DNA of 64,000 nucleotides from Escherichia coli (GTDB lineage Bacteria; Pseudomonadota; Gammaproteobacteria; Enterobacterales; Enterobacteriaceae), in the NCBI RefSeq assembly GCF_030013595.1, contig NZ_CP122768.1; one strand, given 5' to 3'. The translations under genes were made by a program, and so were the position numbers. The notes beneath the pieces are model-generated. The model worked only from the letters and a program-made list of their open reading frames with translations. It did no database searches and had not been told where the DNA came from. The stretch's first letter is position 1. Every line of letters begins with the position of its first letter. This document shows, piece by piece, positions 2,101 through 50,810 of the stretch.

Positions 2101-2514
2101 TTAAATTTTGATTTCGTCAAGCCCGACAATCTTATGAATCGTATTGTCGTAAAGTTTAACGCCCGGTTTACCGTTTTTTAGGGTAACGAAACCGGCGGTG
2201 ATGTTGCCTTCACAACTTTGATTGTTGTTGTATTTGATGGTCTGGGCTTTACCGGTATAGAAATTAATTACGCCGTATAAACCATCCCAGCACGCTGTAC
2301 CCCCCATGGCGTGTACCAGACCGTATTGCATGTCTTTGGATGTGCCCAGGTATTCACAACCTCCGTCGATAGTATCAGTACCCTGACACCAGAATTCTGT
2401 ACCGTCAGTAACGTCAGTCAGGTTGGTCGGTAAAGGAACGGCATTGTTTGCTGATACATTAGCAGTAAAGAAACTGATAACTGCAATCATTAAAATAGTG
2501 ATGATATTTTTCAT
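2101..2514 (-). CDS. Hypothetical secreted Cys-containing protein (signal peptide)
   Basis: 137-aa ORF with hydrophobic N-terminus MKNIITILMIAVISFFTANVSA; six Cys in mature part; lies in visibly AT-rich DNA. Confidence 0.45.
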   Translation of the reverse strand: MKNIITILMIAVISFFTANVSANNAVPLPTNLTDVTDGTEFWCQGTDTIDGGCEYLGTSKDMQYGLVHAMGGTACWDGLYGVINFYTGKAQTIKYNNNQSCEGNITAGFVTLKNGKPGVKLYDNTIHKIVGLDEIKI

Positions 2515-2783
2515 GATAAATACTCCATTGTTTCTGATGTTAAATAAAAGTATAAAAACTGTTTCTGCAATACTTATAATCCACTCGAGAGGTCAGGATT
2601 AACCCCCGACTTGTTTATTAAACACATACCTGAAGATATGACCTTCAACATGGTGATATATTTATACTATGTTTCTGACTGTCTCCTGAATCAAATAAAA
2701 TATATCCGTTCCATGATGAACATCATTTACCTGTTAAGAACACTAATAACCTGATTATTTAGCAAACTCTGCGAGAAAGAATA

Positions 2784-3323
2784 TCAGATCGTAAATAACA
2801 CCAGTATCAGCATAACCAGCCAGACCCAGAAATAAGCAGGTTTTTGCCCGAGGATCTTTGCCCGACGCCACAGATAAACCGGGATCAGCCATGCCAGCCA
2901 GCCAAATGCTGTGGTATCAACACCAGATTTACGGAGTTTTCGTTCATCCAGATATCCCAGAGCAATATTCAGAATCAGAGAGATAAACCAGTACTGGCCT
3001 TCGCTGACTGCATCATAAGCCCGTTCAAATGACATACCGTTCAGCCCGGCAGTCCACATCTCAAGTATGTACCCAATCAAAGGGGCAAATGCCAGCGTCC
3101 AGACAACGTCTCCGGGAATGCGGTGACCCGGAAGGGCCGGAGGAACTTCACTTTGTTTCAGTATTTCCGCCAGTGATGTGGCTGAAACTGGCTGCCATTC
3201 CAGCATGCCCTGTTGCCACACCAGTGTTGATGCATTCAGTTCACCACGCCGGATACGTTCGATAATATCTTCCTCTGTTACGTTATCATAACGTACACCA
3301 TTTTTTTCATAATGCCAGTTCAT
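2784..3323 (-). CDS. Membrane protein with N-terminal DUF4339 (GYF-like) domain
   Basis: 179-aa ORF; N-terminus MNWHYEKNGVRYDNVTEEDIIERIRRGELNASTLVWQQGMLEWQPV fits the W-Y-x-NG...TLVW..GM..W pattern of DUF4339; C-terminal half has hydrophobic helices. Confidence 0.5.
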   Translation of the reverse strand: MNWHYEKNGVRYDNVTEEDIIERIRRGELNASTLVWQQGMLEWQPVSATSLAEILKQSEVPPALPGHRIPGDVVWTLAFAPLIGYILEMWTAGLNGMSFERAYDAVSEGQYWFISLILNIALGYLDERKLRKSGVDTTAFGWLAWLIPVYLWRRAKILGQKPAYFWVWLVMLILVLFTI

Positions 3324-3905: not shown

Positions 3906-4036
3906 GAGATTTCTCCCCAAAATTAAATAAATTAATCTTAACCATCATCCGGGTAATATATATCTGAAAATATTTTCAATAACACCAGATAAGAAAAACA
4001 CCACCACAGTGGCGGTGGCGTTTCTCCGGTGTGTCT

Positions 4037-5107
4037 TTATTTAATCCGGGCCATCGCGTTTCTCAGTGCCGAATCTGCACCTTCAGTTATCTCCTGGCTT
4101 TTCTGTAATACCGCCTCTGACCGGGTCAGTGCCTGACGCGCCGCCAGTGGTTTCCGGATATGCTCCATCGTCAGCATCGTGTCCTCGTAGCCCTGCTGAC
4201 GCCAGGCGTCGATATGTGCCGACGTGAAACTGAGCAGACCGCCACTGTTGCCACCATCACCTGCATGTTTCAGCCTTTTCCGGGGACGGATTTCAAGGAT
4301 TGTGGTGTCCGGAAAAGCCCGACGATCCCATAAAGAACCGTCACTCAGATGCGTCACAATCACCATATTGCATCCGGCATCCACCAGTGGCGTCACGGGA
4401 GTATTCCCCTGCCTGTTTCGCCATCCGCCCATCCCACCATCACCGTACATTGTTCCCTGAACCTCGCGGGGACGGAACAGCAGAGGCAGCGCGGCTGACG
4501 CCAGTAAAGCTTCTTTCTGCTGCCCGCGGGGCAGACTCTGGATATGCTGAAAAACGGCGTTTTTCGTGGTTCCGGCACCCAGTTCAGCACGAATGCAGTC
4601 AATAATATCCTGCATGCCTCCTTCTGTGGGGTACAGCGACACGTACAGCGGTAGCCCGTCAGCCAGAGCATCTGTATCAAGATAATGATCCATCAGCGCT
4701 GTCAGGGGCTCATCTGACAACAGCGGCTGAATCATCGGATTGTCGAACCCGTTGATTGTCGATATATGGCGAAAAAGCGTCGTAAGCAGTGCGCCCGCAC
4801 GTCCGGGGATCTGGCAGAGGTTCATGGCCTGAACCAGTTTTTTCAGCAATGAAAAGTAAACCGATCTGTTTACCGACAGAACCTGATTATTCCCCAGATG
4901 ATCCCAGAGCGCCTCCAGGCGTAAGGTGGCTTCTGACAGATCGGGAGAGGCCGCGATAATGGCACCATTGAGAGCCCCGATACTGGCTCCTGAGACCATA
5001 CTGATCTGTGCGCCGCACTCTGCCAGTGCCTTAACCACCCCCGCCTGATAAGCGCCCACCGCTCCGCCGCCGGACAGCACCAGCCCCGTTTGCATTTCTG
5101 TACTCAT
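4037..5107 (-). CDS. Patatin-like phospholipase
   Basis: 356-aa ORF; Gly-rich oxyanion motif LSGGGAVGAYQAG, lipase serine motif GASIG (GxSxG), and a DGG aspartate motif (YGDGGMGG) near the C-terminus; ATG at 5107 overlaps stop of upstream gene (ATGA). Confidence 0.8.
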   Translation of the reverse strand: MSTEMQTGLVLSGGGAVGAYQAGVVKALAECGAQISMVSGASIGALNGAIIAASPDLSEATLRLEALWDHLGNNQVLSVNRSVYFSLLKKLVQAMNLCQIPGRAGALLTTLFRHISTINGFDNPMIQPLLSDEPLTALMDHYLDTDALADGLPLYVSLYPTEGGMQDIIDCIRAELGAGTTKNAVFQHIQSLPRGQQKEALLASAALPLLFRPREVQGTMYGDGGMGGWRNRQGNTPVTPLVDAGCNMVIVTHLSDGSLWDRRAFPDTTILEIRPRKRLKHAGDGGNSGGLLSFTSAHIDAWRQQGYEDTMLTMEHIRKPLAARQALTRSEAVLQKSQEITEGADSALRNAMARIK

Positions 5108-6009
5108 GCCTCTCCCTTCTGAAATATTTCATCAACCATACTTTCAGAGAGGCGTTCTGCAGAGCAGAGACGGGGCATACGAACCGGTAAGTGTTCTGCA
5201 GCCTGCGTGGTTGACCAGATCACAGGATGCCGCTCTTCACTGCACCAGTCCCCCAGCCAGTTAACCGCTTCATGCCATTCGTTATCAGCCTGTTCCCGGC
5301 GCTGACCACCAAGCCAGTCCAGTGTGTTCAGACGTACTGTTGCGCTACCGCCACTCTCCCGTGCCATCTGCGTTAATGCTTTATATCTGAGAATATCCAG
5401 TAACTGATTAACCTGGCCTGTTTCACCCTGACGAATCACATCACCAAACGCGCCCCAGCGAAGCTCTTCAAGCGCCACATAACAACGTCCGGCAGGGGAA
5501 AATGACGCGTATCGCCCGGCGCTCCACCACGAGAATATCTGCTCAAGATGTAACTGTGCCCGCTGAACCTGGTCAACACGGTGGAGTTTTTCCTCAAGAT
5601 GATTCAGTTTCTGATGAACCTGTTCTGCCAGAGTGAGTAACTGCTCCCGCGTGTCAGCCGAATAATGCGCCAGCCTGGCAGTATCACTGACCAGTGAACT
5701 GACCCTGTCGTTTACCCGGGTAATCGCGTAGTTTGTGGTGGCAAGTGACGTTGTCAGCTCCGTCAGCCAGCGCAGGGACGCCTCAACGCCCTGTGCAAGC
5801 GACGCATTGATGGCATTCTGCCGTGCAGCGCCTTCGCCGGTCAGCCCCTCTTTTAAACGCCGGAAGAACGTGCGCTCTCCGGCCGTGCGGATATGCTCCT
5901 GTGCAACATCGATTCCGTTTGCGAAATCAACCACAAATTTTTCAGGAAGACAGGTGAGTACCTGACATACCCGGTTATCAGCAATTTGTTGAATAAATGG
6001 TGAAGTCAC
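5104..6009 (-). CDS. Coiled-coil hypothetical protein (YjcZ-like partner of dynamin-like GTPase)
   Basis: 301-aa ORF with GTG start overlapping the dynamin stop (GTGA) and its own stop overlapping the patatin start; no catalytic motif recognised; YjcZ comparison is by size and position only. Confidence 0.55.
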   Translation of the reverse strand: MTSPFIQQIADNRVCQVLTCLPEKFVVDFANGIDVAQEHIRTAGERTFFRRLKEGLTGEGAARQNAINASLAQGVEASLRWLTELTTSLATTNYAITRVNDRVSSLVSDTARLAHYSADTREQLLTLAEQVHQKLNHLEEKLHRVDQVQRAQLHLEQIFSWWSAGRYASFSPAGRCYVALEELRWGAFGDVIRQGETGQVNQLLDILRYKALTQMARESGGSATVRLNTLDWLGGQRREQADNEWHEAVNWLGDWCSEERHPVIWSTTQAAEHLPVRMPRLCSAERLSESMVDEIFQKGEA

Positions 6010-8393
6010 AGCATTGTCTCCAGCTCTTCCCTCAGCGCCTTACTGTCAGTAATGAGCTCAGGAACCCTTTCATTTAATGCCTGAAGTCGCCCGGTAAGCC
6101 GTTCCTGCGCCTGCTGATCGCGTTTATGATCTTCAGAGCTCTGAATCAGCGTGTTACGCAGTTGTTCAACTTTCTCCCTGAATGCGCAGAAAAAGGCATC
6201 GATTTCCTGGCGGACGGGCTGGTTAATATCCTGCTCAATGGATGCCTGCAGCTCCCCGAAATATGCCCGGGTCAGTGACATAACTTCCTCTCTGGCCTTG
6301 TTGATATTGATCACGCTGCGACTCACATCCTCGTCATAGTTTTCCCAGCCCAGGTCACTGGTGCCAAACCATCGACAAACGGTTCCCCATACGCCACTCT
6401 GCCGACGGCGACGGGTGACGGTCTCCGTTCTTTCCTCCATAAGCGCACTCAGATTTATTTTTACCGCGAGCCGGGTCTGTAACTGGCTGACTGCCGGAAA
6501 ACTGATTTTTACGGTAAAGCCCTCATCCTCCAGGCGGGCATTGATGCGACCGGCAATGTTTTCTGTGGCGTACAGGGCCGTGCCACGAAAACCTGTTTCA
6601 ATCCCGCTGACGATTTTCTCCAGCTCAGGCCGGAACTGTGCTTCAGCCTCACGGTGCAGGCTGGTCACGGTCGATTCGATTTGCGTCATCAGTTCAAGGG
6701 CTGCCCTGCGATCACTGAATTTTATTTCGGGGCTGTCCGGATCAAAGTCCCGCATCCTGTCATGCTGATTTCCGGTTCCGAAAATATCGTGAAAGAAAGC
6801 GAATGCGTTTCTCTCCCGGGGCTGCGCTGAATTTTCTTCCTCCAGCATTTGCTGTTCTTTGCGTTTACCGCTTCTGAAATAGTCGTTCAGCTCCTCCTCC
6901 AGTGAGGCACAGACCTTCGTCAGTAATTCCCCGGTTTTGGTATTGATGTCCTCCATGGCCATTCTGACATCACCGGTCACCTGATTCTGACATTCCTCAA
7001 TCTCCTGGATATCCGCCAGCAGGCTGGTAATATGCGCCTGTAGTGACTGAATGCTTTGCTGCAGCCCCTGATGACGTAATGACAGATATTCGCTGACATT
7101 TTCTGCATTCTGCATCAGTTTTGCGGCGGCAGAGTCAACCGCCAGTGCCGCCGCTCTGGAATGGGAGCTCTGTATGACTTCCGTTATCAGTTGATCGATC
7201 AGAGATATATTCCAGAGTTTTTCTGCCTTTTTATTTACCTTAGTGCTGTCTTTCCAGTCGTCCTCTTCCACCATAGGTCCGAAAGCTTCCCTGATAAAAT
7301 CATCGACCCAGGCTTCATCAACCGGAAGCGCACCGTTTTTTCGTAACTCATGAAGCGCACGGTTAGCCAGGTACGCCTGACGTGATGAGCCGGGATAAAC
7401 GCGGGAGGCGGGCAGCACATCGCTGTTCAGCATTGCTGGCACCTTCTGGCGTACGGCATCCGCACCATCACCATTGCGATCTTTTTCATCGAATTTATTG
7501 ACCAGCACAAACAGACGACCGGCTGAGACGTCAGCAATGGCATTAAGCTCTTTACGAACCTCCTCATCGGCTTTCGAGTTCATCTGGGTGTAATCCATCA
7601 CCGCCAGCACCGCAGAGGCTTTCTGTAGTTGATCCCGCATCATCATTTCCATCTGTGGTTGTCCGGCTTCATTAGGGCCGGGGGTATCCAGCAGTGTGAG
7701 TGTTCCCTGACATGCATCCATTCCCACCAGGTGGCTGAACGCCACGTCGATCACCGGTAGTTTCTGCACTTCTGCGTATTCGTCAAAAGGAAATTCAGTC
7801 CCCATTGCCGCAGCAAGACGAACCAGGTCATTTAACGATGCCAGTCCGGTAAAGATTTCGTCTTCCCCGTGGTATTCATTTTTAAGCCAGACATCATCCG
7901 CCAGAATATCCAGTAGTTCGCGGGTATCCCCGGTTTGCTGCAGGGACTGTGCGACTTGCTGCCCTGCCGGGGTGGCGAGTTTTTCCTGCAGTGTGATTAA
8001 TAAATTGCGGACGGGCTGAATATGTTCCAGATGGAGGACCGGTTCCGTTTTTCCGGGAACGTGGCGGATCAATGTCGGTACCGAGGTCATGGGGCGGTTA
8101 CGGTTGGGCAGAATTTCCTGCCCCACAATGGCGTTGATGGTGGTTGATTTGCCCGCCTTCATCGTGCCGACCACAGCCAGCACCATCTCCCTGCGGGCGG
8201 TTTTGATTTGTTCGCCCTCCAGCTCCTCAATTCTTTTCAGCGCTTTCCGTTTATCAAAAAGCAGCCCGTTTTCGTTCTTACTGTCAGATAACACATCCGG
8301 CTCATCAACCATTTGCCGGAGCAGATTGATATTCAGTTGCAAAAGCCGGTCGGCTTCATCACAAAGCAGGGCGATGTTCTTTTCGTGCATCAT
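6006..8393 (-). CDS. Dynamin-like GTPase (CrfC/YjdA-like bacterial dynamin)
   Basis: 795-aa ORF; G1 P-loop VVGTMKAGKSTTINAIVG, G3 LLDTPGPNE, G4 VNKFD; long helical C-terminal region; N-terminal block closely resembles my recollection of E. coli YjdA. Confidence 0.75.
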   Translation of the reverse strand: MMHEKNIALLCDEADRLLQLNINLLRQMVDEPDVLSDSKNENGLLFDKRKALKRIEELEGEQIKTARREMVLAVVGTMKAGKSTTINAIVGQEILPNRNRPMTSVPTLIRHVPGKTEPVLHLEHIQPVRNLLITLQEKLATPAGQQVAQSLQQTGDTRELLDILADDVWLKNEYHGEDEIFTGLASLNDLVRLAAAMGTEFPFDEYAEVQKLPVIDVAFSHLVGMDACQGTLTLLDTPGPNEAGQPQMEMMMRDQLQKASAVLAVMDYTQMNSKADEEVRKELNAIADVSAGRLFVLVNKFDEKDRNGDGADAVRQKVPAMLNSDVLPASRVYPGSSRQAYLANRALHELRKNGALPVDEAWVDDFIREAFGPMVEEDDWKDSTKVNKKAEKLWNISLIDQLITEVIQSSHSRAAALAVDSAAAKLMQNAENVSEYLSLRHQGLQQSIQSLQAHITSLLADIQEIEECQNQVTGDVRMAMEDINTKTGELLTKVCASLEEELNDYFRSGKRKEQQMLEEENSAQPRERNAFAFFHDIFGTGNQHDRMRDFDPDSPEIKFSDRRAALELMTQIESTVTSLHREAEAQFRPELEKIVSGIETGFRGTALYATENIAGRINARLEDEGFTVKISFPAVSQLQTRLAVKINLSALMEERTETVTRRRRQSGVWGTVCRWFGTSDLGWENYDEDVSRSVININKAREEVMSLTRAYFGELQASIEQDINQPVRQEIDAFFCAFREKVEQLRNTLIQSSEDHKRDQQAQERLTGRLQALNERVPELITDSKALREELETML

Positions 8394-8500
8394 TCACCTT
8401 TATAAATTCAATAATTCAGAACTGCGGTGAACAGCAATGAGCGTCCTTTCCCATTACTGCATGAATTTTCCTGAAATCGTATTTCCGGGATACCGTATAA

Positions 8501-19028: not shown

Positions 19029-20290
19029 TCCTTCCTCCTTTCTTTCATACGCTGCAGATAACGTTCATAGTGCCGGGGTTTGTTCGGACTGAAGGAGAGG
19101 GTCCGGTACCAGAAATCATTCTTTATAAGTGTCTTACAGATACGCCGCCAGGACGGAATATCCCGGCTCCCCAGGTCATTCTCCTGTTCATCCGGGATGT
19201 CATCCGGGAAGCCCCGCGTCTGATACCAGCGCAGGTAGACAGCAATTTTATTACGGTAATGTTCTGCCGTTCTTTCCGGCATCACATCCAGCAGGAACAT
19301 CGCATAGCTGCGCCAGGTATGATGGGCTGGTTTTGATATACGTTTACGCAGGGCAAAATAGGCACCGCTTTCATTGGCATAAAGCGCCCCGCTGGCAGCG
19401 CCTGACACCCGCTCACACATCCTGGCCCAGGTTTCCGGCTCCAGAACATGGTAAAGCCACAGCCCCTTACGTTGTTCAGGACCAAAAGGTTCACAGACAC
19501 GCATGTTGCGTAACGGCACGTCGGCACGGTACATCAGGTCATACAGAGGATTGTAAATGGCACAAGCTCTGGCGTTATATATCCAGATATCGCGGGCTTT
19601 CCAGTCATACAACGGATACATGGTGTAATAAAACCCTTCAGGCGATGCCGTGGTCCAGGGCTTATCATCGGCATATCTCAGTTTGCGCTGAGACACCAGC
19701 CCCATAAAGCGATTGAGGGATTCATCCGCACGAACACCGGTCAGCACTGCCACTCCACACCGGTTACCGGCAAACCAGGAAGAAAATGCCGGAACAAATT
19801 CTTCAAACGTCATGGCATACCGGAAAAAGGGAAAATATGTCATATCCGTAATGGCCTCTTCCGGTGGCTGGCGAACCCAGGTCACTCCTGGCTCCCAGCA
19901 TATCCACTCCGGCTGAAACTGCGAGACGCCGTTTACCGTGGTCAGGGGAAGTGCCACCCAGTAAAAGGTTTCCGTCACATCATGGTACATTTCCCGCATC
20001 TTCTGAATATGTTCAATGGTGCACCGATACTGGGCCTCCCAGTCAATGAACAGAACAGAGAAATGACGTTTTCTCCTGCGGGCCACCTCTGCCACAAGAT
20101 GGAAAAGCACGGTGGAATCCTTTCCACCTGAAAAAGACAGACATACCGACGGAAATGTTTCAAAAATCCACTCAATGCGGGCGATTGCAGCACGCAAAAC
20201 ATTTTCTCCGGTAAGGATTTTTTCGGTTAAAAGCGTATCACTCATTTTCCTGGCTTTATGTCGAATAATTCTGTTTATACATTCAGGCAA
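19013..20290 (-). CDS. PAPS reductase / PP-loop ATP-pyrophosphatase family protein (IbrA/DndC-like)
   Basis: 425 aa; PP-loop SFSGGKDST near N-terminus; long C-terminal extension; translationally coupled to ParB-like gene. Confidence 0.7.
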   Translation of the reverse strand: MPECINRIIRHKARKMSDTLLTEKILTGENVLRAAIARIEWIFETFPSVCLSFSGGKDSTVLFHLVAEVARRRKRHFSVLFIDWEAQYRCTIEHIQKMREMYHDVTETFYWVALPLTTVNGVSQFQPEWICWEPGVTWVRQPPEEAITDMTYFPFFRYAMTFEEFVPAFSSWFAGNRCGVAVLTGVRADESLNRFMGLVSQRKLRYADDKPWTTASPEGFYYTMYPLYDWKARDIWIYNARACAIYNPLYDLMYRADVPLRNMRVCEPFGPEQRKGLWLYHVLEPETWARMCERVSGAASGALYANESGAYFALRKRISKPAHHTWRSYAMFLLDVMPERTAEHYRNKIAVYLRWYQTRGFPDDIPDEQENDLGSRDIPSWRRICKTLIKNDFWYRTLSFSPNKPRHYERYLQRMKERRKEWGIL

Positions 20291-20745
20291 ACTTCATTAA
20301 TAACTCACCGCTTTGGGGATAAATAATAACAACAAAAATCTTCAGATATTAACCTGGTTGTTGGATTTGTTATCACATCCTTTATCCACCTGCTTCTTAC
20401 TGGTAACACACCTGGAAAATCCATGCATTTTCAACATATACTATCCTTTCAACTTGTAAATAAGAAAATATGATGCAGATGGTGAACAATTCAAATATCA
20501 TTTTGCAGGAAGTATTCACTGTAATAGAATTACCCCCTGATAAAGTTTATTCACTAAGGAATTATTCAACAGAAACATTCCCTGTTAGCTTTGAGCAATA
20601 GCACTTATTTTTATATGTATCAGGAATACGTACGTTGATGTAACCAAAACAAAGAAGCCTGTGTCCATGGGGTTCGTACAATTGTGTGTGGCACATGACC
20701 AAATCAGGTTTGAGACCTCCCGCTGCAATATTTTTTATTCAGATT

Positions 20746-23427
20746 TTAGCCTGTCAGGCCTGACAGAAACGCTCCCAACTTCCCTTCTATATCACTGTCT
20801 ATAGTACGTAATCTTAGCAATGGCAGGCCGCATTTCTTCAGTATACTGTTTTTAAGTTCATCACGTTCAGCCTGAACACTGGTCAGATGATAACCTCCAT
20901 CCACTTCAATAACCCCTAATGGAGTCTTCCCGACCTTATAGTAAACAACAAAGTCACAACTGGCCCGGTTACGCATGAATAACTGTTCACGGTGTGTAAA
21001 ATCCCCCCGCTCCAGCGACACCAACTGATTCAGCGCTATTTGTGAATGAAACATCATACTCCGATAACTATCCTGCGACAGGATATCCCGCAACAGGCAG
21101 GCCACAATCTGTTCTGACTTAAAGTGTGAATCATTTGAATTCAATCTACTATTCAGTCGTTCCAGTGATTTGTCATACTCACTGTACAGCAAATCAAATG
21201 CTGATATGACCGGGCTCTCGAAAATCTCTCCGTCATCAGCGTAGTATTTGATGTAACGAATCAGCGCCGCAATATGTCCAGCGTGGCGTTCAAATACATC
21301 ATTACCAGTCACCAGCGTAAATTTATTTCGGGCCCTTGAAACAGCGACATTCACCAGTTCAGGATTATCAACAAACGCGATGTTCCGACTGTGCTGGCTG
21401 CTGCGCTTCTTATCCAGCACAGTGGAAAACACAATTTCATCGCACTCCCGTCCCTGAAATTTATGCACCGTCGATTTCACAAAATCAGCAGGCAGCACTT
21501 TTTCAGCCAGATTAACCTGTGCATTATATGGGGCAATGTATCCCCTGCTACTTTCTTCATCCCAGTAATGACCTTCCAGAGATTCAAGCTCCCTGAGATT
21601 TGAAAAATTACGGGTATGGTTTCCTTTTGCCGTGATGACCAGAGATAATGAGGCTTCACCGGAATCAACCGTTAACGGTATCAGAGCATTATCATAAAAC
21701 TGCTTATTACAAAATTGAATGATTTTAGGATGACAACGATAATGCTCTTTAAGAAGGGTTACTGGCACCATGTTCCTGAACAACATACAAACCGAATCAA
21801 GTAGACTATATTTCTCACAATTATAGTATTCTGCCGGTGGAGATGGGCTGTTCGGGAGTAATACAGGAACATGTGGAAGTTGCTTACGATCCCCTACAAC
21901 GATTACATTACGGGCACATCCCAGTCCCAGAATGCCCGGAACAATATCCTGCTGCGAGGCTTCATCAATAATAACATAATCAAGAAGGGCCCCCTTGCCG
22001 ATAGAGTTAATAATCGAATGCGTACTGCTACCAATAATCGGAAAACGCTTTATAAAACGGTCAAATTCATCCCTGTATGTCTCTGCCGAGAATGAACTTC
22101 TTGTTGAAACATTTCTTCGCAGATGTTGCTTTAAATAAAGCATAGACCATGATGTCAGGCGCCCCAGTAAAATTTTAAAATCAGATTTTTTAAATACTTC
22201 CTCATATTCATTCAGAGAAATTTGTTTTTCCCGGATATTTTTTTCATAATAAGAAAGCTGAAGAGAAGTAAATAGCGCCAGCCTTCTCTCCGGAATCATC
22301 AATGGTTTGACTTTCAGTATCATGAAGTTTAACAACAAATCAATTCTGTTTCTGAATCCAATCCGCCTGTCAGAAAGGTAATGAATATAAGCCATCAGGT
22401 CGGTTGTTTTTTGTGAGGAAAATCGGTATTTGTGAGAAAAAAGCTCCTCCGGTCGAAGATTCTGACTCTGCCATTGCTGCAGGTATTTATACTCAATATT
22501 CAGCTCATTAATTTCTGCTTTTAACGAAGCGACCTGGTTAATGGCATTCAGGTGTTTTTTCACTTGTTGAAGTACATCATCAATCGCATTTGCAGACGGT
22601 GAGTCAGGTAAGACTTCCTCAGAACGCGAAATCGACGTTGAAAAAAACTGTTGCCTGTTCCCCGTACTCCCCAGTCGTGCCATCACATATCCCAGTTGCT
22701 GTTTGTCCATCTTTTCATAAACATTACTGACAGCTGAGTTATTATTGGACAAAATTGCCACTGTTTTATTCTGAATTAATATATTAGCAACAATATTGAG
22801 TATAGTCTGTGTTTTACCTGTTCCAGGTGGTCCTTCAATAACTGAAATCTGTGAGGAAAATGCCCGTTCGACAGCCAGCAACTGACTTTCATTAAGACCA
22901 AACGGAAAAATCAAACCCCATGGCGAATCACGTTTTTTACTCTGTCCTGAACAGTATGCATGCAAGGCGGTATCCGGATGAGGAACTATTTTCTTTATCT
23001 GCCTAAGGATATTCTCATCGATATTTCTGTTATTACCACGGGCATAAAAAATACGTTCATTAGCCACCCTACACAAGTAATTAAACACGGCATGCTCTGT
23101 AAATGCTGAACACTGTTGAAAGTCAAGGCCGGTCGTTTTCATGATGTAGGGTCGTTCACCCTCGCGGTAATAAACAGCAGCATATTTATCACCATATATA
23201 ATAACCAGTTCAGCCCGGGATGTTACAGCGTTCCCTTTCCTTTCGAGGAAAACATTTCGCAAATTTACAGTTGGCGTTATCTGACATACAGAAAGCGGAC
23301 GAGTATATTTTCTCCCGCTGCGAAAATGACAGGTCAGCATAACCTCTCTGTCGTCATTTCCAGCCCACAGCGTCCAGTCGGTAATTTTATGAGTCTTATT
23401 TTCACCGTCAACACAAATCGTGACCAT
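20746..23427 (-). CDS. Superfamily-1 (Upf1/DNA2-like) helicase with N-terminal unknown domain and C-terminal Vsr/DUF559-like endonuclease domain
   Basis: 893 aa; Walker A GPPGTGKT, Walker B IIDEASQ, motif III VVGDRKQLP, YRCHPKIIQFCNKQFY, motif V VHKFQGRECDEIVFS, motif VI VAVSRARNKF; C-terminus CDFVVYY...VIEVDGGYH...AERDELKNSILKKCGLPLLRL resembles the DUF559/Vsr-type PD-(D/E)xK fold. Confidence 0.75.
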   Translation of the reverse strand: MVTICVDGENKTHKITDWTLWAGNDDREVMLTCHFRSGRKYTRPLSVCQITPTVNLRNVFLERKGNAVTSRAELVIIYGDKYAAVYYREGERPYIMKTTGLDFQQCSAFTEHAVFNYLCRVANERIFYARGNNRNIDENILRQIKKIVPHPDTALHAYCSGQSKKRDSPWGLIFPFGLNESQLLAVERAFSSQISVIEGPPGTGKTQTILNIVANILIQNKTVAILSNNNSAVSNVYEKMDKQQLGYVMARLGSTGNRQQFFSTSISRSEEVLPDSPSANAIDDVLQQVKKHLNAINQVASLKAEINELNIEYKYLQQWQSQNLRPEELFSHKYRFSSQKTTDLMAYIHYLSDRRIGFRNRIDLLLNFMILKVKPLMIPERRLALFTSLQLSYYEKNIREKQISLNEYEEVFKKSDFKILLGRLTSWSMLYLKQHLRRNVSTRSSFSAETYRDEFDRFIKRFPIIGSSTHSIINSIGKGALLDYVIIDEASQQDIVPGILGLGCARNVIVVGDRKQLPHVPVLLPNSPSPPAEYYNCEKYSLLDSVCMLFRNMVPVTLLKEHYRCHPKIIQFCNKQFYDNALIPLTVDSGEASLSLVITAKGNHTRNFSNLRELESLEGHYWDEESSRGYIAPYNAQVNLAEKVLPADFVKSTVHKFQGRECDEIVFSTVLDKKRSSQHSRNIAFVDNPELVNVAVSRARNKFTLVTGNDVFERHAGHIAALIRYIKYYADDGEIFESPVISAFDLLYSEYDKSLERLNSRLNSNDSHFKSEQIVACLLRDILSQDSYRSMMFHSQIALNQLVSLERGDFTHREQLFMRNRASCDFVVYYKVGKTPLGVIEVDGGYHLTSVQAERDELKNSILKKCGLPLLRLRTIDSDIEGKLGAFLSGLTG

Positions 23428-23667
23428 ATTCTTACTCAGAAATTATCATTTAACTTACGGAAAATTGTTAAGGCACTCCCGATATTAGCTCCGGAGGATT
23501 TTCCACAACTCCGGGACTGTTAACATATTTCTGCCTGCCATATATACATTGAATTTAGTCATAACAGTCAATACCAGAATTACAGGAATGCGATGCCGAT
23601 ACGCTGGTTATTGAATACTGGTAGCCCCTGAGCACTAATTCATCACGATACTCTGTATTTACTGTTT

Positions 23668-24801
23668 TCACTGCTTTTTACAACCATTCCCCCAGGTAAA
23701 ATGCTGCTCCTCCGGTGATGGCTGTGTCAGAAACTGCCATCCCGGAATAGCCACGCTGACCGCCAGCAATGCCGCACAGACACCAGCCACAAACGGTTTC
23801 AGAAACGTGGGCGGGGATTTCTGAAGGGAGGGTGACTGCTCCGCCTGCACTTTCCCCTTGCGATTATCAAGGCTCAGTGCATCCAGACGCACCGCGCCAT
23901 TTGCCGCAAGCAGCCCTTCCCGGTTATCCACGCTTCCCGGCAGACTCAGCGAAAAATCCCCTGTTCCCGTCTGAATCAGACTGCCTTTACGATTTGACAG
24001 GCTTTGTGCCGATATCTGCAGTGTGTCGGCATTTATCGTACCGCCATTACTGCTGAACTGCCCGGCAGTCCGGGCGGAAAGCGTATCGGCACTCAGTTGC
24101 GCATTCTGTGTAGACAGATTTCCACTGGTTGCATTCAGCTCAGTATGTTGTCCCTGTATCCGGCTGTTACCTAAATCCAGCCCCTGCTCAATGTCCCGTA
24201 AATCCAGCAGAGAACCTTCGTGTGCCGGGAATGAGGAATACAACTGAATATAGTCATCACTGTCCGGTGTCAGACGCACATGTCGCACAACACCGGGAAT
24301 AATAACCAGCCGGAGGATACCGCTTTTTAAATCCTGCGAAGGTGCCAGAACACGGGTGGTGACATAACCATGATCGACCAGACGGTTCTGCAATGTACTC
24401 ATCAGCAGATTAATTCCTTTCGCCCCCAGGCAATGCCCGACCGCCCCGTTGGCGATTTTTTGTAAAGGCAGCCAGTGTGGTAACGCATCAGCCCCCTTCA
24501 GTTCCGTCTGTTTAATCTGAAAACAGGGCGTTTCAACAGGAAAATTAATCTTATGGGCAAAAGAGCCAGGTGCAGAAAGGCGAACATCAGGGGCTGAAGG
24601 CGTCAGTTGTTGCTCAAGGGCTTCCTGACGCTGCTGCTGAATGATAAATGCTTCATCTCCGCTACGCCGGACATCCGCTGCCTGAAGAGATAAAGGCGAT
24701 AATAAAGCAGACATCAGTGTCAGTGACAGCAAGGACGGACAGCGCCGGAATAAGCTTTGTTCCTCAGTCCTCTCGTTCCTGCAACATAATTTTCCAGTCA
24801 A
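23668..24801 (-). pseudogene. Two-partner-secretion remnant: TpsB/CdiB-like POTRA N-terminus fused to TpsA/CdiA-like repeat fragment
   Basis: Signal peptide [17 protein letters not shown]-like block ([10 protein letters not shown]...[17 protein letters not shown]), then low-complexity hemagglutinin-type repeats; no beta-barrel region, so likely an internal-deletion product. Confidence 0.4.
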
Positions 24802-25388
24802 ACGAAAAACCTTTTATTCATGTCATACCAACAATCACCAGCCTCCTGACGATACCTCCCACCATGTTTTGCGATGGCACGCTACCGCCCTTCCGGTATT
24901 TACCCGCATCAACCGGTACCAGAATGCTGAGTAACAAACCAGCTAGAATTGACTTAATTTTGATCATTATAGAATAATGATCTGAACTACAGCAACATGA
25001 CAGATTTATCGATCGATATAACACAAATGAACAGTTCTTTATTCTGACAAATATCGCAAAAACAGCACATTACAAAATTTATAACCATAATTACTGGAAA
25101 AGTGCAGAAAATTATTCCACTGAATGCTTTTAATACAGTTGGTTAGCTTAAAAAATAGCAATTTTTGATTTCAGTCATTGAAAGTTGCAATGTTTGACGA
25201 TTCAACAGCATTTAAGTGAGTTTCAGGATATGGGAAGGACATGAAAGGAGGAGCGCAATAAAATACACAGGAAGAAGGGGAAAATGTTTCGTAAAAACAG
25301 AAAATTAACAGCGCACATCAGGAAACGCAGTCTCCTGATTCAGTGCTACCACATGAAAATTTAGTTAACTGTTACCGTACTAAAATTT

Positions 25389-25580
25389 ATGTCAGAAGAT
25401 GTTCCATTACCGAAAGTCAATCAGCGATACAAAGACGATCATGGTGCGCTTGTCACCCTGACCAGTGTTGAGGAAACCCGGGTGGTGTTTATGCAGGACG
25501 GCTATCCGCATCCCTGCATGCGACCGATGTACAACTTTCTGGGAAAATTCAAACCCGAACCCCGGGAAGAAACAGAATAA
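25389..25580 (+). CDS. DUF4222-like small prophage protein
   Basis: 63 aa; pattern RYKDDHGALVTLTSVEETRVVFMQDGYPHPCMRPMYNF fits the recalled DUF4222 consensus. Confidence 0.45.
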   Translation: MSEDVPLPKVNQRYKDDHGALVTLTSVEETRVVFMQDGYPHPCMRPMYNFLGKFKPEPREETE

Positions 25581-25632
25581 AACGAAATCCCTGCCGGCAA
25601 TCACACTACCTGATAGCAGCATAATCCACTTA

Positions 25633-25941
25633 TTAATTCTCATCCCCGGAGACAAGCCCAGAAAACCACTCCGGGTGTTCACTGTATGCCGTGTTCAGCG
25701 CATCCCTGGAAACGTTTATATAAAAGCTGTCCTGCAATTTGCGGGTAACAACTTCTGCCAGGCGATTCCGGTTATCCACCAGTCCGGCATAACCTCTCTC
25801 TGCCAGCCACTCATTCAGTTCATGTTCCAGAGACAGATTGATAATATCATAATCGGACCTTGCCATTCCCGTTTCCTTAGCACATGTTTTCAGGCACGGG
25901 GATAAAGTATAAAGAATGTCATACTGCTGCTGCCAGAGCAA
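25633..25941 (-). CDS. Hypothetical small protein (true start may be the internal Met giving ~77 aa)
   Basis: ORF on same strand as the two downstream hypothetical genes; no motif recognised. Confidence 0.3.
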   Translation of the reverse strand: MLWQQQYDILYTLSPCLKTCAKETGMARSDYDIINLSLEHELNEWLAERGYAGLVDNRNRLAEVVTRKLQDSFYINVSRDALNTAYSEHPEWFSGLVSGDEN

Positions 25942-36275: not shown

Positions 36276-38366
36276 ATGCGAATAACCACTCTGGCTTCCG
36301 TAGTCATTCCCTGTCTCGGATTTTCAGCCAGCAGCATAGCTGCTGCAGAGGATGTGATGATTGTCTCGGCATCCGGCTATGAGAAAAAGCTGACTAACGC
36401 AGCCGCCAGTGTTTCTGTGATTAGCCAGGAGGAATTGCAGTCCAGCCAGTACCACGATCTGGCGGAGGCTCTGAGATCAGTAGAGGGTGTGGATGTTGAA
36501 AGTGGTACGGGTAAAACCGGAGGGCTGGAAATCAGCATCCGAGGAATGCCAGCCAGTTACACGCTGATACTGATTGATGGTGTTCGTCAGGGCGGAAGCA
36601 GTGACGTGACTCCCAACGGTTTTTCTGCCATGAATACCGGGTTCATGCCCCCTCTGGCCGCCATTGAGCGTATTGAGGTTATCAGGGGGCCGATGTCCAC
36701 ACTGTATGGCTCTGATGCGATGGGCGGTGTGGTGAATATCATTACCAGAAAGAATGCAGACAAATGGCTCTCTTCCGTCAATGCAGGGCTGAATCTGCAG
36801 GAAAGCAACAAATGGGGTAACAGCAGCCAGTTTAATTTCTGGAGCAGTGGTCCCCTTGTGGATGATTCTGTCAGCCTGCAGGTACGCGGTAGCACACAAC
36901 AGCGTCAGGGTTCATCGGTCACATCACTGAGCGATACAGCAGCCACGCGTATTCCTTATCCCACGGAGTCACAGAATTATAATCTTGGTGCACGTCTTGA
37001 CTGGAAGGCGTCGGAGCAGGATGTGCTCTGGTTTGATATGGATACCACCCGGCAGCGTTATGATAACCGGGATGGGCAACTGGGGAGTCTGACGGGGGGA
37101 TATGACCGGACCCTGCGCTATGAGCGAAACAAAATTTCAGCTGGCTATGATCATACTTTCACCTTCGGAACATGGAAATCGTATCTGAACTGGAACGAGA
37201 CAGAAAATAAAGGTCGTGAGCTTGTACGCAGTGTACTGAAGCGCGACAAATGGGGGCTTGCCGGTCAGCCGCGGGAGCTTAAGGAATCGAACCTTATCCT
37301 GAATTCATTACTGCTTACCCCTCTGGGAGAATCTCATCTGGTTACGGTGGGGGGCGAGTTTCAGAGCTCGTCCATGAAAGACGGAGTTGTCCTTGCCAGC
37401 ACAGGTGAAACTTTCCGGCAGAAAAGCTGGTCGGTATTTGCTGAGGATGAGTGGCATCTCACGGATGCACTTGCGCTGACTGCGGGCAGCCGCTATGAAC
37501 ATCATGAGCAATTCGGGGGACACTTCAGTCCGCGTGCATATCTGGTCTGGGATGTGGCAGATGCCTGGACGCTGAAAGGCGGTGTGACCACGGGATATAA
37601 GGCACCCAGAATGGGGCAGCTACATAAAGGGATTAGTGGTGTGTCCGGGCAGGGAAAAACAAATCTACTTGGTAACCCCGACCTGAAGCCGGAAGAGAGC
37701 GTCAGTTATGAGGCTGGGGTGTATTACGATAACCCCGCCGGTCTGAATGCCAATGTCACAGGTTTTATGACTGACTTCTCCAACAAGATTGTCTCTTATT
37801 CCATAAATGATAACACCAATAGCTATGTAAACAGCGGAAAGGCCCGGTTGCACGGTGTGGAATTTGCCGGCACATTGCCGCTGTGGTCAGAGGATGTCAC
37901 GCTGTCACTGAATTACACCTGGACCCGAAGTGAACAACGTGATGGTGATAACAAAGGTGCGCCGCTGAGTTATACCCCTGAACACATGGTGAATGCGAAA
38001 CTGAACTGGCAGATCACCGAAGAGGTGGCATCATGGCTGGGTGCCCGTTATCGCGGGAAAACACCACGTTTCACCCAGAATTATTCGTCACTGAGCGCTG
38101 TACAGAAGAAAGTGTATGATGAGAAAGGAGAATACCTGAAAGCCTGGACGGTGGTGGATGCAGGTCTGTCGTGGAAGATGACGGATGCCCTGACGCTGAA
38201 TGCTGCGGTGAATAACCTGCTCAACAAGGATTACAGTGACGTGAGCCTGTACAGTGCCGGTAAGAGTACGCTGTATGCCGGTGATTACTTCCAGACGGGA
38301 TCATCAACAACAGGATATGTGATACCTGAGCGAAATTACTGGATGTCGCTGAACTATCAGTTCTGA
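36276..38366 (+). CDS. iha: TonB-dependent outer-membrane siderophore receptor / adhesin (IrgA homologue adhesin)
   Basis: 696 aa; signal peptide; plug-domain and 22-strand barrel features; C-terminal ...YWMSLNYQF aromatic end; length and sequence match recalled Iha. Confidence 0.8.
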   Translation: MRITTLASVVIPCLGFSASSIAAAEDVMIVSASGYEKKLTNAAASVSVISQEELQSSQYHDLAEALRSVEGVDVESGTGKTGGLEISIRGMPASYTLILIDGVRQGGSSDVTPNGFSAMNTGFMPPLAAIERIEVIRGPMSTLYGSDAMGGVVNIITRKNADKWLSSVNAGLNLQESNKWGNSSQFNFWSSGPLVDDSVSLQVRGSTQQRQGSSVTSLSDTAATRIPYPTESQNYNLGARLDWKASEQDVLWFDMDTTRQRYDNRDGQLGSLTGGYDRTLRYERNKISAGYDHTFTFGTWKSYLNWNETENKGRELVRSVLKRDKWGLAGQPRELKESNLILNSLLLTPLGESHLVTVGGEFQSSSMKDGVVLASTGETFRQKSWSVFAEDEWHLTDALALTAGSRYEHHEQFGGHFSPRAYLVWDVADAWTLKGGVTTGYKAPRMGQLHKGISGVSGQGKTNLLGNPDLKPEESVSYEAGVYYDNPAGLNANVTGFMTDFSNKIVSYSINDNTNSYVNSGKARLHGVEFAGTLPLWSEDVTLSLNYTWTRSEQRDGDNKGAPLSYTPEHMVNAKLNWQITEEVASWLGARYRGKTPRFTQNYSSLSAVQKKVYDEKGEYLKAWTVVDAGLSWKMTDALTLNAAVNNLLNKDYSDVSLYSAGKSTLYAGDYFQTGSSTTGYVIPERNYWMSLNYQF

Positions 38367-38395
38367 TAATAACAAAACGCTATCACTGACGGTAG

Positions 38396-38440
38396 AATAC
38401 GTTGCCACTGCAACTCCTGGCGGAACAGTGGCAACGTATT
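38396..38440 (+). terminator. 15-bp perfect inverted repeat 30 bp after iha stop (stem-loop, no T-tract)
   Basis: AATACGTTGCCACTG - 15 nt loop - CAGTGGCAACGTATT. Confidence 0.5.
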
Positions 38441-38879
38441 AGGTTAAGTGCATTTCCGATCCGCTAATGAGATTTCGTTACCAACAACTAATATCGTCAC
38501 AGGAAATGCACGGATTATTTTTAACTTATCATTTACATACTTGTCCAGAGTGTAAGCGCACCGTGAAGGACGTGGGGTAAAAATTAGTTTACAGAGAGAG
38601 TGACGTTCCAGGGCAACAACTCTTTCATGCGGTTGGCAGGCCAGGTGTTGATTACACTGATCACGTGGCGTAGCCACGTTTCCGGCTCGATTCCGTTAAG
38701 TTTTGCAGCTACCGATCAGGCTGTACATCACTGCCGCACTATCGCTCGTCATCTCAAAGTCCGGTCTCGTCAGCAGGAAGGTATCATTCTCTCCCGCCAT
38801 TTTTCCAGGGGCCCGGTCAGATAAGTCCCTTTGTCTATCGCTGACTCCTGACTCATAACCCGGTTAGCAGAATGCAGGG

Positions 38880-39266
38880 TCACCACCTCGCCACGACCAA
38901 ATCCAAATAAGTCAATTGCACCTTCTCAATCGCCATTTTGTCAGTAAGCGTACAGCCTGAACTGATGGTATCTTCACCATCAATGACAACGGTGATCGCA
39001 ATTTTACTGACGTTCGCCGGAACACGATCCAGTGCTATCTCAATGCTGGCCTGCTGCGAACCGGTAACGAGCCTGACTGCCCCCTCAGGAGAAGACAAAT
39101 TATTATAAAAGATAAAGTCAGAATCGCCACTGACCTTTCCCTGAGCATTAAGCATGAACAGGCAGGTATCGGGTTCGCCTTTAAAGCCGGATTTGGCAGG
39201 GTACTGAAGATTCAGCCTGATCGTAGATTGCTGAAGGGGTATGTTTTGTCCGGATTGTAAATTCAT
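38880..39266 (-). pseudogene. terF: TerF-like TerD-domain protein, truncated (N-terminal 128 codons only)
   Basis: MNLQSGQNIPLQQSTIRLNLQYP... parallels the TerA N-terminus; ORF is far shorter than a full ter-family protein of this type and is followed by non-coding debris. Confidence 0.5.
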
Positions 39267-39646
39267 ATTAACTCTCCTGATTTTTGATTATTATTAATGC
39301 GCAGCGTTTATATATGTTCCCTAGGCTTAGTTCTGGACGCTGGATATTCGGTGAGGCGTAAATATGGTATGACACCATTTTTCATAACGCTGAAGTTTCT
39401 ATACCTGTTGAATTTGAATTTTCATTGACCGGGTATCTTATTTTCCAGGGCCCGTTCCTTCATAAGTCGCAAAAGTAACATATATCCGAAGGGCATGCTG
39501 TTGATATCAGACACGGAATACTGGCTTTAACCAGCAACCACAGATAAACCCGGGGCCTGCATAAAAGGTTCATGCCAGAATTAACATAGCTCTGCTTTCT
39601 GCCCCCCCCTTTCCCATATTCACCCGTTGATAGCGGATCGATACCC

Positions 39647-39687: not shown

Positions 39688-40263
39688 TTAGACATTGACG
39701 CCGTGCTGGGAAGCAAGCGCTGACAGACCACCGGCAAAACCCTGGCCAACAGCTTTAAACTTCCACTCAGTACCATGGCGATACAGTTCACCGAAGACCA
39801 TTGCGGTTTCGGTTGAGGCGTCTTCAGACAGATCGAAACGGGCAATTTCCGTCCCGTTGTCGTTGTTGTAAACGCGCATGAAGCTGTTGCTCACCATGCC
39901 GAAGTTTTGTTTACGCGCTTCTGCATCATAGATGGTAACGGCAAATACCAGTTTTTTGATGTCTGCTGAGACTTTGGTCAGATCGATTTTGACCTGCTCA
40001 TCGTCGCCGTCGCCTTCACCGGTACGGTTGTCGCCCTGGTGCTCTACTGCGCCATCAGGGCTGGTTTTATTATTGAAGAAAATGAAATGGGCATCTGACA
40101 GTACTTTACCGTCTTCACCTACTGCGAATACGGAAGCGTCCAGATCAAAACCCTGACCATCGGTTACACGGGCATCCCAGCCCAGGCCAACCATAGCGAC
40201 ATTCATGGTTGGTGCTTCTTTGGTCAGAGATACGTTGCCGCCTTTTACGAGAGAAACTGCCAT
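39688..40263 (-). CDS. terE: Tellurium resistance protein TerE (TerD domain)
   Basis: Start at [18 protein letters not shown]; TerD-domain paralogue directly after terD. Confidence 0.8.
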
Positions 40264-40331
40264 TTTTAGCTCCTGCAAACAGTTGAATGAGGCTGAATTA
40301 ACAGCCCCAGATATGAAAAGTTACTTTTCGA

Positions 40332-40910
40332 TCAGGACGCGTTAATGCCGTACTGAGCACATACAGATGCCAGACCACCAGCATAACCCTGGCCTACTGC
40401 GCGGAATTTCCACTCACCATTGTGGCGATACAGCTCGCCGAACAGCATGGCAGTCTCAGTGGACGCATCTTCGGTCAGATCGTAGCGAGCGACTTCAGTC
40501 TGGTTATCGTCATTAACCAGACGAATAAACGCACCGGATACCTGACCAAAGCTCTGGCGACGAGCCTGAGCATCGTGGATGGTCACAACGAAGATGATCT
40601 TGTCAACTTCAGACGGGACGGCGTCCAGTTTAATTTTCAGCGATTCATCATCACCATCGCCCTCACCGGTGCGGTTATCGCCGGTGTGCGTTACGGAACC
40701 GTCGGATGACGTCAGGTTGTTATAGAAGATGAAATCTGAATCGCCGCGCACTTTGCCGTTTGAGGCCAGCAGGAATGCTGAAGCATCCAGGTCAAAGTCC
40801 TGACCGTCTGTTGAACGCGCATCCCAGCCAAGGCCCACCAGGACATTTTTCATTGACGGAGCTGCTTTACTCAGGGAGACGTTCCCGCCTTTGGAAAGAG
40901 AAACACTCAT
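40332..40910 (-). CDS. terD: Tellurium resistance protein TerD
   Basis: 192 aa [32 protein letters not shown]...; canonical TerD. Confidence 0.85.
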
Positions 40911-40958
40911 AAAATAACCTCTTCGATTAGTAATTGTTCAGGTTAACACTTAAGGGGA

Positions 40959-41999: not shown

Positions 42000-42021
42000 A
42001 TTTTACCCTTAGGGATGTGGA

Positions 42022-42477: not shown

Positions 42478-42499
42478 ACCTGTTTCCTTTGTTGCTGTG

Positions 42500-45619: not shown

Positions 45620-45628
45620 GGCGTATTT

Positions 45629-47537: not shown

Positions 47538-47538
47538 A

Positions 47539-49574: not shown

Positions 49575-49584
49575 GGAAATCATA

Positions 49585-50793: not shown

Positions 50794-50810
50794 GCAGGCT
50801 AAATCTTACG

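Follow-up and report, generated by a model that had tools for sequence, protein, structure and literature searches.

The closest characterised relatives of the genes described here are RdcA (YjdA/CrfC), a dynamin-like GTPase of Escherichia coli K-12, and its partner RdcB (YjcZ). RdcA binds RdcB. Without bound nucleotide it docks on the membrane domain of DgcE, a diguanylate cyclase, which is thereby activated; GTP is inhibitory, and RdcA was reported to be soluble (PMC6510439). Proteins of the same two families are encoded by the first two genes of a three-gene operon in a 64,000-nucleotide stretch of E. coli DNA (contig NZ_CP122768.1; the window), where they are followed by a patatin-like phospholipase. 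The operon, hereafter the trio, is best described as a combination of known parts, with a dynamin-like protein as proposed switch, a YjcZ protein as adaptor and a patatin as effector, that lies outside Eleos, the cyclic-oligonucleotide-based antiphage signalling systems (CBASS), Juk and RdcAB orthology. Judged from its genomic context and by analogy, it would be a three-part immune module carried by mobile elements, a reading held with about even confidence.

In the Juk system, JukA (YaaW) senses ejected jumbo-phage proteins and recruits swappable effectors, and JukA has been found fused to a Ras-like GTPase, a patatin or an unknown coiled-coil domain (bioRxiv 10.1101/2022.09.17.508391). Phospholipases are counted among the Juk effectors acting on the early-infection vesicle in a 2026 review (PMC13282480). 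The trio itself is induced in lysogens according to a 2026 transcriptomics paper, which took it for a putative defence system. Its authors noted about 30% identity to RdcAB, found no link in the literature between bacterial dynamins and phospholipases and assigned to the two smaller proteins a possible role in regulating the dynamin (PMC12922286). A further paper lists the trio genes in passing (PMC13182975). Literature searches (dynamin + patatin + defence, YjcZ, RdcAB) returned no functional study of the trio. A preliminary description, made from the sequence, had called the module uncharacterised; this stands for its function and fails for its novelty, the operon having already been put forward as a defence system.

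Three coupled genes and their protein families

The three genes form one translationally coupled operon on the minus strand (Table 1). Both junctions are 4-nucleotide (nt) stop/start overlaps, GTGA (6009-6006) and ATGA (5107-5104), and the open reading frame (ORF) table and the sequence agreed on this point with the preliminary description. Shine-Dalgarno-like motifs (GGAG/GGAGAGG) were located just 5′ of both internal starts, inside the 3′ ends of the upstream genes. The operon is closed by a hairpin and T-run resembling an intrinsic terminator, which begins 20 nt past the patatin stop codon. Hidden Markov model searches, suggested earlier as a check, assigned the three products to the Pfam families Dynamin_N (5.4e-18), YjcZ (PF13990; 1.9e-69, over the full length of gene 2) and Patatin (5.7e-24, residues 9-226 of gene 3). 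The RefSeq product names are 'dynamin family protein', 'diguanylate cyclase regulator RdcB family protein' and 'patatin-like phospholipase family protein'.

The GTPase motifs of gene 1 are complete. In the numbering of the 794-residue product they are G1 GTMKAGKS (75-82), G2 T102, G3 DTPG (235-238) and G4 NKFD (298-301), and the motif residues were invariant in an alignment of 35 homologues; G1, G3 and G4 had been recognised in the preliminary description, and G2 is added here. Over its full length the protein is 33% identical to K-12 RdcA/CrfC/YjdA. The NCBIfam CrfC model (NF007368) aligned with it end to end (E 8e-170), scoring 566.7 bits against an equivalog cut-off of 1146. Orthology to RdcA was rejected on this score, on the 33% identity and on the placement of the locus in a separate clade of the YjcZ tree (see below). 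On alignment, then, the gene 1 GTPase is a full-length paralogue of RdcA/CrfC, a signalling GTPase.

The AlphaFold2 model of gene 1 (mean predicted local distance difference test score, pLDDT, 79.9) consisted of a GTPase domain followed by long antiparallel helices. Foldseek matches in the Protein Data Bank (PDB) were SynDLP (1.2e-13), the bacterial dynamin-like protein BDLP (2.5e-13), IniA (1.5e-11), mitofusins, Campylobacter DLP1/2 and LeoA (6e-7), with template modelling scores that were low (0.2-0.3) because domain orientation differs. The model and its matches mark gene 1 as encoding a genuine bacterial dynamin-like protein and, as modelled, the product has the overall BDLP fold with a helical stalk after the GTPase domain. 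The tip of the stalk has a stretch rich in Lys, Arg and Glu and, after it, a short hydrophobic/aromatic patch (FAFFHDIF). When the segment corresponding to window residues 500-565 was compared between 20 trio dynamins and 15 RdcA-clade proteins, it was 59-82 residues long with 9-19 Lys and Arg and a short hydrophobic/aromatic patch in the former, as against 12-46 residues with 0-7 Lys and Arg, and no patch noted, in the latter. The basic and hydrophobic insert is specific to the trio clade, in a part of the protein modelled with low confidence; lying at the position of the BDLP paddle, it may be a membrane contact.

A bacterial dynamin fold on mobile or defence islands, and a proposed link with phage defence, are what the trio shares with Eleos (formerly 'Dynamins'; LeoA with LeoBC) and with Bacillus subtilis DynA. 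The trio has one dynamin gene, whereas Eleos has two or three in tandem, and Foldseek ranked LeoA below SynDLP and BDLP. Membership of Eleos/LeoABC was rejected: PADLOC gave no LeoA match, and its LeoBC match was weak and partial (9.2e-6, 23 bits), with no stretch passing alone. The GTPase is not of the type of LeoA and DynA, the dynamin-like proteins named in the preliminary description, but a paralogue of RdcA/CrfC. To our knowledge neither Eleos nor DynA has a lipase and YjcZ partner.

Gene 2, placed correctly in the middle of the operon by the preliminary description, had there been labelled generically as a coiled-coil protein; it belongs instead to the defined family YjcZ/RdcB and is 31% identical to K-12 RdcB. 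The family is small (331 clusters at 50% identity among 1.84 billion representatives). In the AlphaFold2 model (pLDDT 83) an N-terminal helical bundle precedes a compact, mainly helical C-terminal domain, and no informative fold match to this model was found in the PDB. By analogy, the protein is proposed as an adaptor linking the sensor to the lipase.

The full patatin motif set claimed for gene 3 was recovered along with the Pfam match: GGGAVG at residues 13-18 (GGG 13-15), GASIG at 40-44 and DGG at 223-225. The catalytic dyad, Ser42 (nt 4984-4982) and Asp223 (nt 4441-4439), is intact, and GGG, Ser42 in GASIG and Asp223-GG were each at least 93% conserved in 32 homologues, which also shared a family-specific conserved block at residues 227-275. 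The domain starts at residue 9 and leaves no room for a signal peptide, so that the enzyme is cytoplasmic. The closest solved chains (PlpD, VipD and ExoU) matched the N-terminal motif region only, and the likeness to RssA and CapV was likewise confined to that region. Gene 3 is proposed, again by analogy, to supply an effector that would degrade membrane lipids.

Very little probability is given to the alternative that the patatin is a virulence factor delivered to host cells in the manner of ExoU, VipD and PlpD, with the GTPase and the YjcZ protein as chaperone or activator. Those three lipases are its best solved-structure matches; the strain is diarrhoeagenic, and the operon lies in a pathogenicity-type island (O-island (OI)-43/48-like) that carries urease, ter, iha and cah. 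Against such a role, the protein has neither a signal peptide nor a secretion leader ahead of its domain, the matches to secreted lipases extend over the catalytic N-terminal motifs only, and the trio is common in environmental non-pathogens (Gallionella, Allochromatium, Macromonas) and in commensal E. coli.

The trio shares with CBASS of the CapV type a multi-gene module on mobile DNA whose presumed output, degradation of membranes, falls to a cytoplasmic patatin, and to this extent the comparison with CBASS made in the preliminary description stands. Membership does not: no CD-NTase (cGAS/DncV-like nucleotidyltransferase) or any other cyclase was present in the operon or among its neighbours, and the CapV model NF041079 (CBASS_lipase) scored 16.6 bits against a cut-off of 200. 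In the trio, activation would be by protein partners and not by a cyclic nucleotide.

Trio and pair clades of the YjcZ family

Conservation of the trio as a unit was examined in a YjcZ-alignment scan of one genome per GTDB species, which yielded 79 loci. A dynamin gene directly preceded YjcZ in all 79. The patatin gene was also present in 26, always in the order dynamin-YjcZ-patatin; these loci came from Escherichia albertii, Pantoea, Erwinia, Serratia, Budvicia, Pseudomonas, Marinospirillum, Chromatiales and six betaproteobacterial genera. The 53 loci that had no patatin gene were all from Enterobacteriaceae or Enterobacteriaceae-like metagenome bins, in agreement with the earlier statement that the chromosomal CrfC/YjcZ pair has no lipase partner. 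Patatin homologues 48-64% identical to that of the window, in Pseudomonas fluorescens, Vibrio vulnificus and Pectobacterium, all stood in the trio order, and metagenomic relatives at only 25-26% YjcZ identity still kept the lipase and the gene order. Gene overlaps of 1-4 nt were seen in most trio loci. There was no universal fourth gene, the downstream genes varying among loci.

A neighbour-joining tree of YjcZ proteins separated trio and pair into two clades with no mixing, and the presence of the lipase tracked one clade exactly. The lipase is thus not a separately inherited housekeeping gene, a possibility that the preliminary description had raised against its own proposal; its other objection, that the three genes might not be conserved as a unit, does not hold either. 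Pair loci occupied the fixed yjdM-rdcAB-proP site (yjdM in 52 of 53, proP in 37 of 53), whereas neither neighbour was found at any of the 26 trio loci. These data establish joint inheritance of the three proteins in beta- and gammaproteobacteria, where their contexts are variable and mobile and often rich in defence genes. The wider taxonomic spread of the trio clade suggests that the Enterobacteriaceae pair is a derived, lipase-less form, a direction that is read from a tree rooted at its midpoint only.

An apparent dynamin-YjcZ fusion (P0241) was rejected as uninformative, being an internal deletion within a core rdcAB locus. Dynamin-patatin and YjcZ-patatin 'fusions' in E. coli were single-member clusters at 93-97% identity; they were rejected as designs and taken as deletion products.

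The trio and RdcA/RdcB have two protein families in common, with an unchanged gene order and 4-nt overlap, and also share identical G1-G4 residues, a conserved N-terminal helix and Trp-rich hairpin, full-length alignment and, probably, the principle of a GTPase switch that with a YjcZ partner controls an enzyme. They differ in the patatin, always present in the trio clade and never in the pair clade; in a mobile and variable location, the window copy lying in the serX island; in the longer, basic/hydrophobic stalk tip; and in the presumed target enzyme, which the trio would encode in cis and which for RdcAB is DgcE, encoded in trans.

The likeness raises the alternative that the island pair acts as RdcA and RdcB do, sensing GTP and regulating an enzyme, either the lipase in cis (to signal with or remodel lipids during stationary phase or in biofilms) or the host DgcE in trans. 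The established RdcA mechanism (PMC6510439), the homology along the full length of both proteins with all GTPase residues conserved, and the RefSeq assignment of the middle protein to the RdcB family of diguanylate cyclase regulators all speak for such a signalling role. It is nevertheless quite unlikely: the trio clade stands apart phylogenetically and is found in taxa and settings that have nothing to do with dgcE, a distribution that is mobile, patchy and multi-copy does not suit core physiology any more than defence neighbours do, and the NCBIfam score is half the equivalog cut-off.

Defence neighbours, JukA and the proposed mechanism

The survey of gene neighbourhoods, also suggested beforehand, found defence systems near some of the trio loci. 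BREX (bacteriophage exclusion) genes lie beside the trio in Vibrio, and BrxF/BrxC adjoin it in Pantoea; McrBC and a type I restriction-modification subunit accompany it on a metagenome contig, and a type I restriction-modification system follows it in Pseudomonas putida. In Marinospirillum viperin and its kinase are nearby, and the Gallionella trio is found among PIN toxin-antitoxin pairs. WYL/WCX or BrxR-like regulators were present within about 2.5 kb upstream in about 10 loci, and in four (Gallionella, Vibrio, a metagenome contig and Marinospirillum) the regulator was directly adjacent and co-directional. The association of trio loci with defence is suggestive, though anecdotal.

Genes for JukA were found 13-58 nt past the patatin gene, on the same strand, in Erwinia/Pantoea and in two Pseudomonas loci (L040, L020, L010, L002). 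In Erwinia sp. S63 (L040:4578-10754) complete JukA and JukB genes, overlapping by 10 nt, begin 40 nt downstream of the trio, and the locus gives the appearance of two membrane-directed modules joined in one co-directional array of five genes. In a small gammaproteobacterial genome (ENA ERZ19489111 contig_1, L087:7001-9630) a 532-residue fusion of full-length JukA (8e-74) to YjcZ is followed by a patatin gene, with no dynamin gene. Close relatives of JukA are, moreover, fused to Dynamin_N/MMR_HSR1 GTPase domains. Each of the three kinds of component in the operon thus occurs as a partner of JukA, and YjcZ with patatin can be driven by a different sensor. This is the strongest argument for the lipase as output, YjcZ as coupler and the dynamin as sensor or switch.

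The JukA-YjcZ and patatin locus has parC on one side and a Transposase_31 gene on the other; a different JukA fusion, with other cargo, occupies this spot in a related genome (L098). The C-terminal domain of another JukA-fusion relative (P0271) was considered as a possible YjcZ domain and rejected (hhalign probability 0.1%), so that the JukA-YjcZ fusion remains a single case.

The trio resembles Juk in joining a modular sensor to an effector aimed at membranes. It differs in that the window operon has no JukA, a dynamin-like GTPase taking the sensor position: no JukA match was found among the three operon proteins and the two downstream ORFs, and nothing YaaW/DUF3944-like is annotated in the flanks.

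In the proposed mechanism the module would most likely protect against phages, and possibly against other invading DNA. By analogy with RdcA/RdcB, the dynamin-like GTPase would be the sensor or switch, and candidate signals are a falling GTP level or a perturbation of the membrane, felt by the basic/hydrophobic tip of the stalk. The YjcZ protein would couple this sensor to the lipase by activating or recruiting the patatin, which, once activated, would hydrolyse membrane phospholipids. The outcome could be death or arrest of the infected cell (abortive infection) or, alternatively, local destruction of a phage-made membrane structure, as proposed for Juk effectors on the early-infection vesicle. 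Expression is probably controlled by the WYL-type regulator in many loci outside E. coli. This polarity is the opposite of that in PMC12922286, where the smaller proteins were suggested to act on the dynamin.

Were the dynamin instead the working part, the operon would serve non-suicidal membrane maintenance or remodelling, the GTPase sealing, fusing or vesiculating membrane like B. subtilis DynA or LeoABC of enterotoxigenic E. coli (ETEC). The lipase would then supply lysolipids or curvature, or clear damaged lipid, and the benefit would be tolerance to pore-formers, colicins or phage lysis, or the release of outer-membrane vesicles. The BDLP fold with its basic/hydrophobic stalk tip favours this, as do the links of bacterial dynamins with vesicles and membrane surveillance (cited in PMC12922286) and the origin of the window from a porcine ETEC island rich in surface factors (cah, iha). 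The JukA-YjcZ and patatin variant argues the other way: because it lacks a dynamin, YjcZ and the lipase are suggested to be the constant output and the dynamin a replaceable input. RdcA, the closest characterised relative, is moreover reported to be soluble and acts as a switch and not as a remodeller, and WYL regulators and defence neighbours would be unexpected for housekeeping repair. Membrane maintenance is on balance unlikely.

Several findings weigh against an immune module as the function of the trio. The literature searches found no defence phenotype for it, and PADLOC-DB v2 has no model for it; apart from the weak LeoBC match, the PADLOC matches were limited to weak lipase effectors (residues 9-52). 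RdcA/RdcB, the only characterised homologues, are diguanylate cyclase regulators with no immunity role, and the parts of sensor, adaptor and effector are assigned by analogy. Up-regulation in lysogens comes from one RNA-sequencing study, in which the authors flag multi-mapping for some genes (PMC12922286). A recognised defence system was present within 7 kb in only about 9-10 of about 28 non-redundant trio loci, and several loci, for example Pseudomonas Irchel and the window itself, have no recognised defence gene. Finally, the fusion of JukA to YjcZ was found once among 57 relatives.

A broader proposal is tentatively offered, as possible. The trio may represent a widespread, hitherto unrecognised immune class in which an RdcA-like GTPase detects a sign of infection, for example a membrane damaged where injection takes place or an altered nucleotide pool, and frees the patatin via YjcZ to act on membranes. 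YjcZ and patatin would be a portable cassette that JukA can also drive, and RdcA/RdcB would be a domesticated, lipase-less descendant retargeted to DgcE.

Distribution, mobility and island setting

The window DNA is 100% identical to that of E. coli UMNK88 (porcine ETEC), and the operon was found in 2612-2619 of 5426 complete E. coli genomes (about 48%), in 1-5 copies and several alleles; because of the identity to the annotated UMNK88 genes and this prevalence, the trio is not a chance arrangement. Most E. coli copies are 90-95% identical to the window allele. The commonest arrangement in E. coli is a cargo slot of a CP4-type island, between a YeeP-like GTPase gene and DUF932/antirestriction genes, and the CP4-type setting given in the preliminary description is confirmed. 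The same slot holds flu in K-12 CP4-44. In the window the trio follows cah, which encodes an antigen 43 (Ag43)-family autotransporter, and in most other E. coli islands it directly follows the YeeP-like gene with no Ag43; Ag43 and trio cargoes therefore share one island slot. The operon is also carried, as 'hypothetical' cargo, in known pathogenicity islands (OI-43/48 type and PAI-CFT073-aspV). YeeP-like GTPase genes flank trio loci in Pseudomonas, Serratia and Pectobacterium too, which suggests one island family crossing genera.

The trio was present on 46 plasmid records, from Klebsiella, Enterobacter and E. coli plasmids that are conjugative or mobilisable, conjugative IncFII plasmids among them; two Nostoc plasmids were also matched in this search. 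The YjcZ protein of the plasmid variant is 63% identical to that of the window, and the variant is bracketed by the insertion sequences (IS) IS1 and IS30. On the Klebsiella pneumoniae IncFII plasmid NZ_CP147596 (L094) the dynamin gene is 5′-shortened next to IS1. No phage copy was found by tblastn in 50,697 phage records or by a pattern scan of IMG/VR. An integrative element is also among the settings of the trio, and the Vibrio trio lies near a relaxase gene. ileS and lspA usually form one conserved operon; in Allochromatium (L091:6652-13166) the trio, with Uma2-family and Fic genes, is inserted between them as a small integrase-less islet.

Truncated and internally deleted alleles, in-frame deletion fusions among them, are numerous in E. 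coli (clusters P0005, P0036, P0045, P0061 and P0076); other damaged alleles carry IS66 insertions (H64) or survive as short fragments labelled 'ferredoxin reductase'. This abundance hints at frequent decay of the operon in the species.

Such alleles would also be expected of costly toxic genes, and this bears on the idea that the trio is selfish stabilisation or competition cargo, a lipase toxin restrained by its partners that serves addiction or the exclusion of plasmids and conjugative elements. The CP4-type islands in which it lies beside CbtA/CbeA, the IncF plasmids on which it is flanked by IS elements and the toxin-antitoxin genes nearby in Gallionella are in keeping with that idea. Three large proteins, one a 794-residue GTPase, would however be an unusual design for addiction, nothing indicates that the components differ in stability, and the links with JukA and WYL regulators point to phage sensing. 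Selfish cargo is accordingly rated improbable.

The island that hosts the trio in the window sits at tRNA-Ser (serX), adjoining ghrA, and belongs to the OI-43/48 type, carrying urease, ter, iha, ibrAB-like and cah genes; after cah and the trio its CP4-type backbone continues with DUF932, antirestriction, RadC/JAB and CbtA/CbeA genes. A sequence scan of the interval between cah and the operon found no terminator-like site, and a promoter scan of the leader gave no match above shuffled expectation; transcription from cah may therefore run on into the operon.

Table 1. Positions of the operon, its parts and neighbouring features in the window
Feature	Position	Strand	Details
Gene 1, dynamin-like GTPase	8393-6006	minus	795-residue ORF; RefSeq start at the second ATG (8390), 794 residues; WP_000544679
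Dynamin_N GTPase domain	7494-8180	minus	Pfam PF00350; residues 72-300 of the 795-residue ORF
Stalk-tip segment	6711-6869	minus	residues about 508-560, between AlphaFold2 helices 447-507 and 561-622; low pLDDT
Gene 2, YjcZ/RdcB-family protein	6009-5104	minus	301 residues, GTG start; WP_000203531
Gene 3, patatin-like phospholipase	5107-4037	minus	356 residues; WP_000102676
Intrinsic-terminator-like hairpin and T-run	3999-4017	minus	8-bp stem (5 GC pairs), loop of 3, then TTTTTCTTAT
Intergenic leader	8394-8500	minus	between cah stop and dynamin start; AGGTGA ribosome-binding site
cah, Ag43-family autotransporter gene	8501-11425	minus	directly upstream of the operon
YeeP-like GTPase pseudogene	about 11720-12640		frameshifted; upstream of cah
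IS66 element	about 12820-15410		complete (tnpA/tnpB/tnpC); upstream of cah
ibrAB-type pair	about 19500-21350		3′-phosphoadenosine-5′-phosphosulfate (PAPS)-reductase-family gene overlapped by IbrB-like (ParB-like) gene
POTRA-domain protein and AAA protein	about 21850-25820		AAA protein of 893 residues
iha	about 37300-39400
ter (tellurite-resistance) cluster	about 39900-52300		complete, with TerW
DUF4339 protein and hypothetical protein	2101-3323	minus	179 and 137 residues; downstream of the terminator

A PerC-family regulator adjoins the ibrAB-type pair, the ter cluster is accompanied by linked genes for ATP-grasp, phosphoribosyltransferase, StiP protease and HpcH-aldolase proteins, and urease accessory genes lie at the far end of the window. 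The two proteins encoded downstream of the terminator, DUF4339 and the 137-residue protein, had no PADLOC or NCBIfam match. Other E. coli islands hold different small genes downstream of the trio (225 and 136 residues), and the published 'five-gene cluster' induced in lysogens may include small genes in this position.

If the trio is indeed an immune module, a defence unlisted in 2023-era catalogues would be present in about half of the E. coli sequenced, in many Pseudomonas, on plasmids of Klebsiella/Enterobacter and in a range of environmental proteobacteria. A dynamin-type GTPase switch would join the membrane-lipase effectors, so far mainly known as outputs of cyclic-nucleotide signalling. 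The small, otherwise opaque YjcZ family would acquire an adaptor role, and the three types of partner fused to JukA would be tied together. Since RdcA/RdcB, as regulators of biofilm, form the sister clade that has no lipase, the family would also offer a testable case of exaptation from immunity to signalling.

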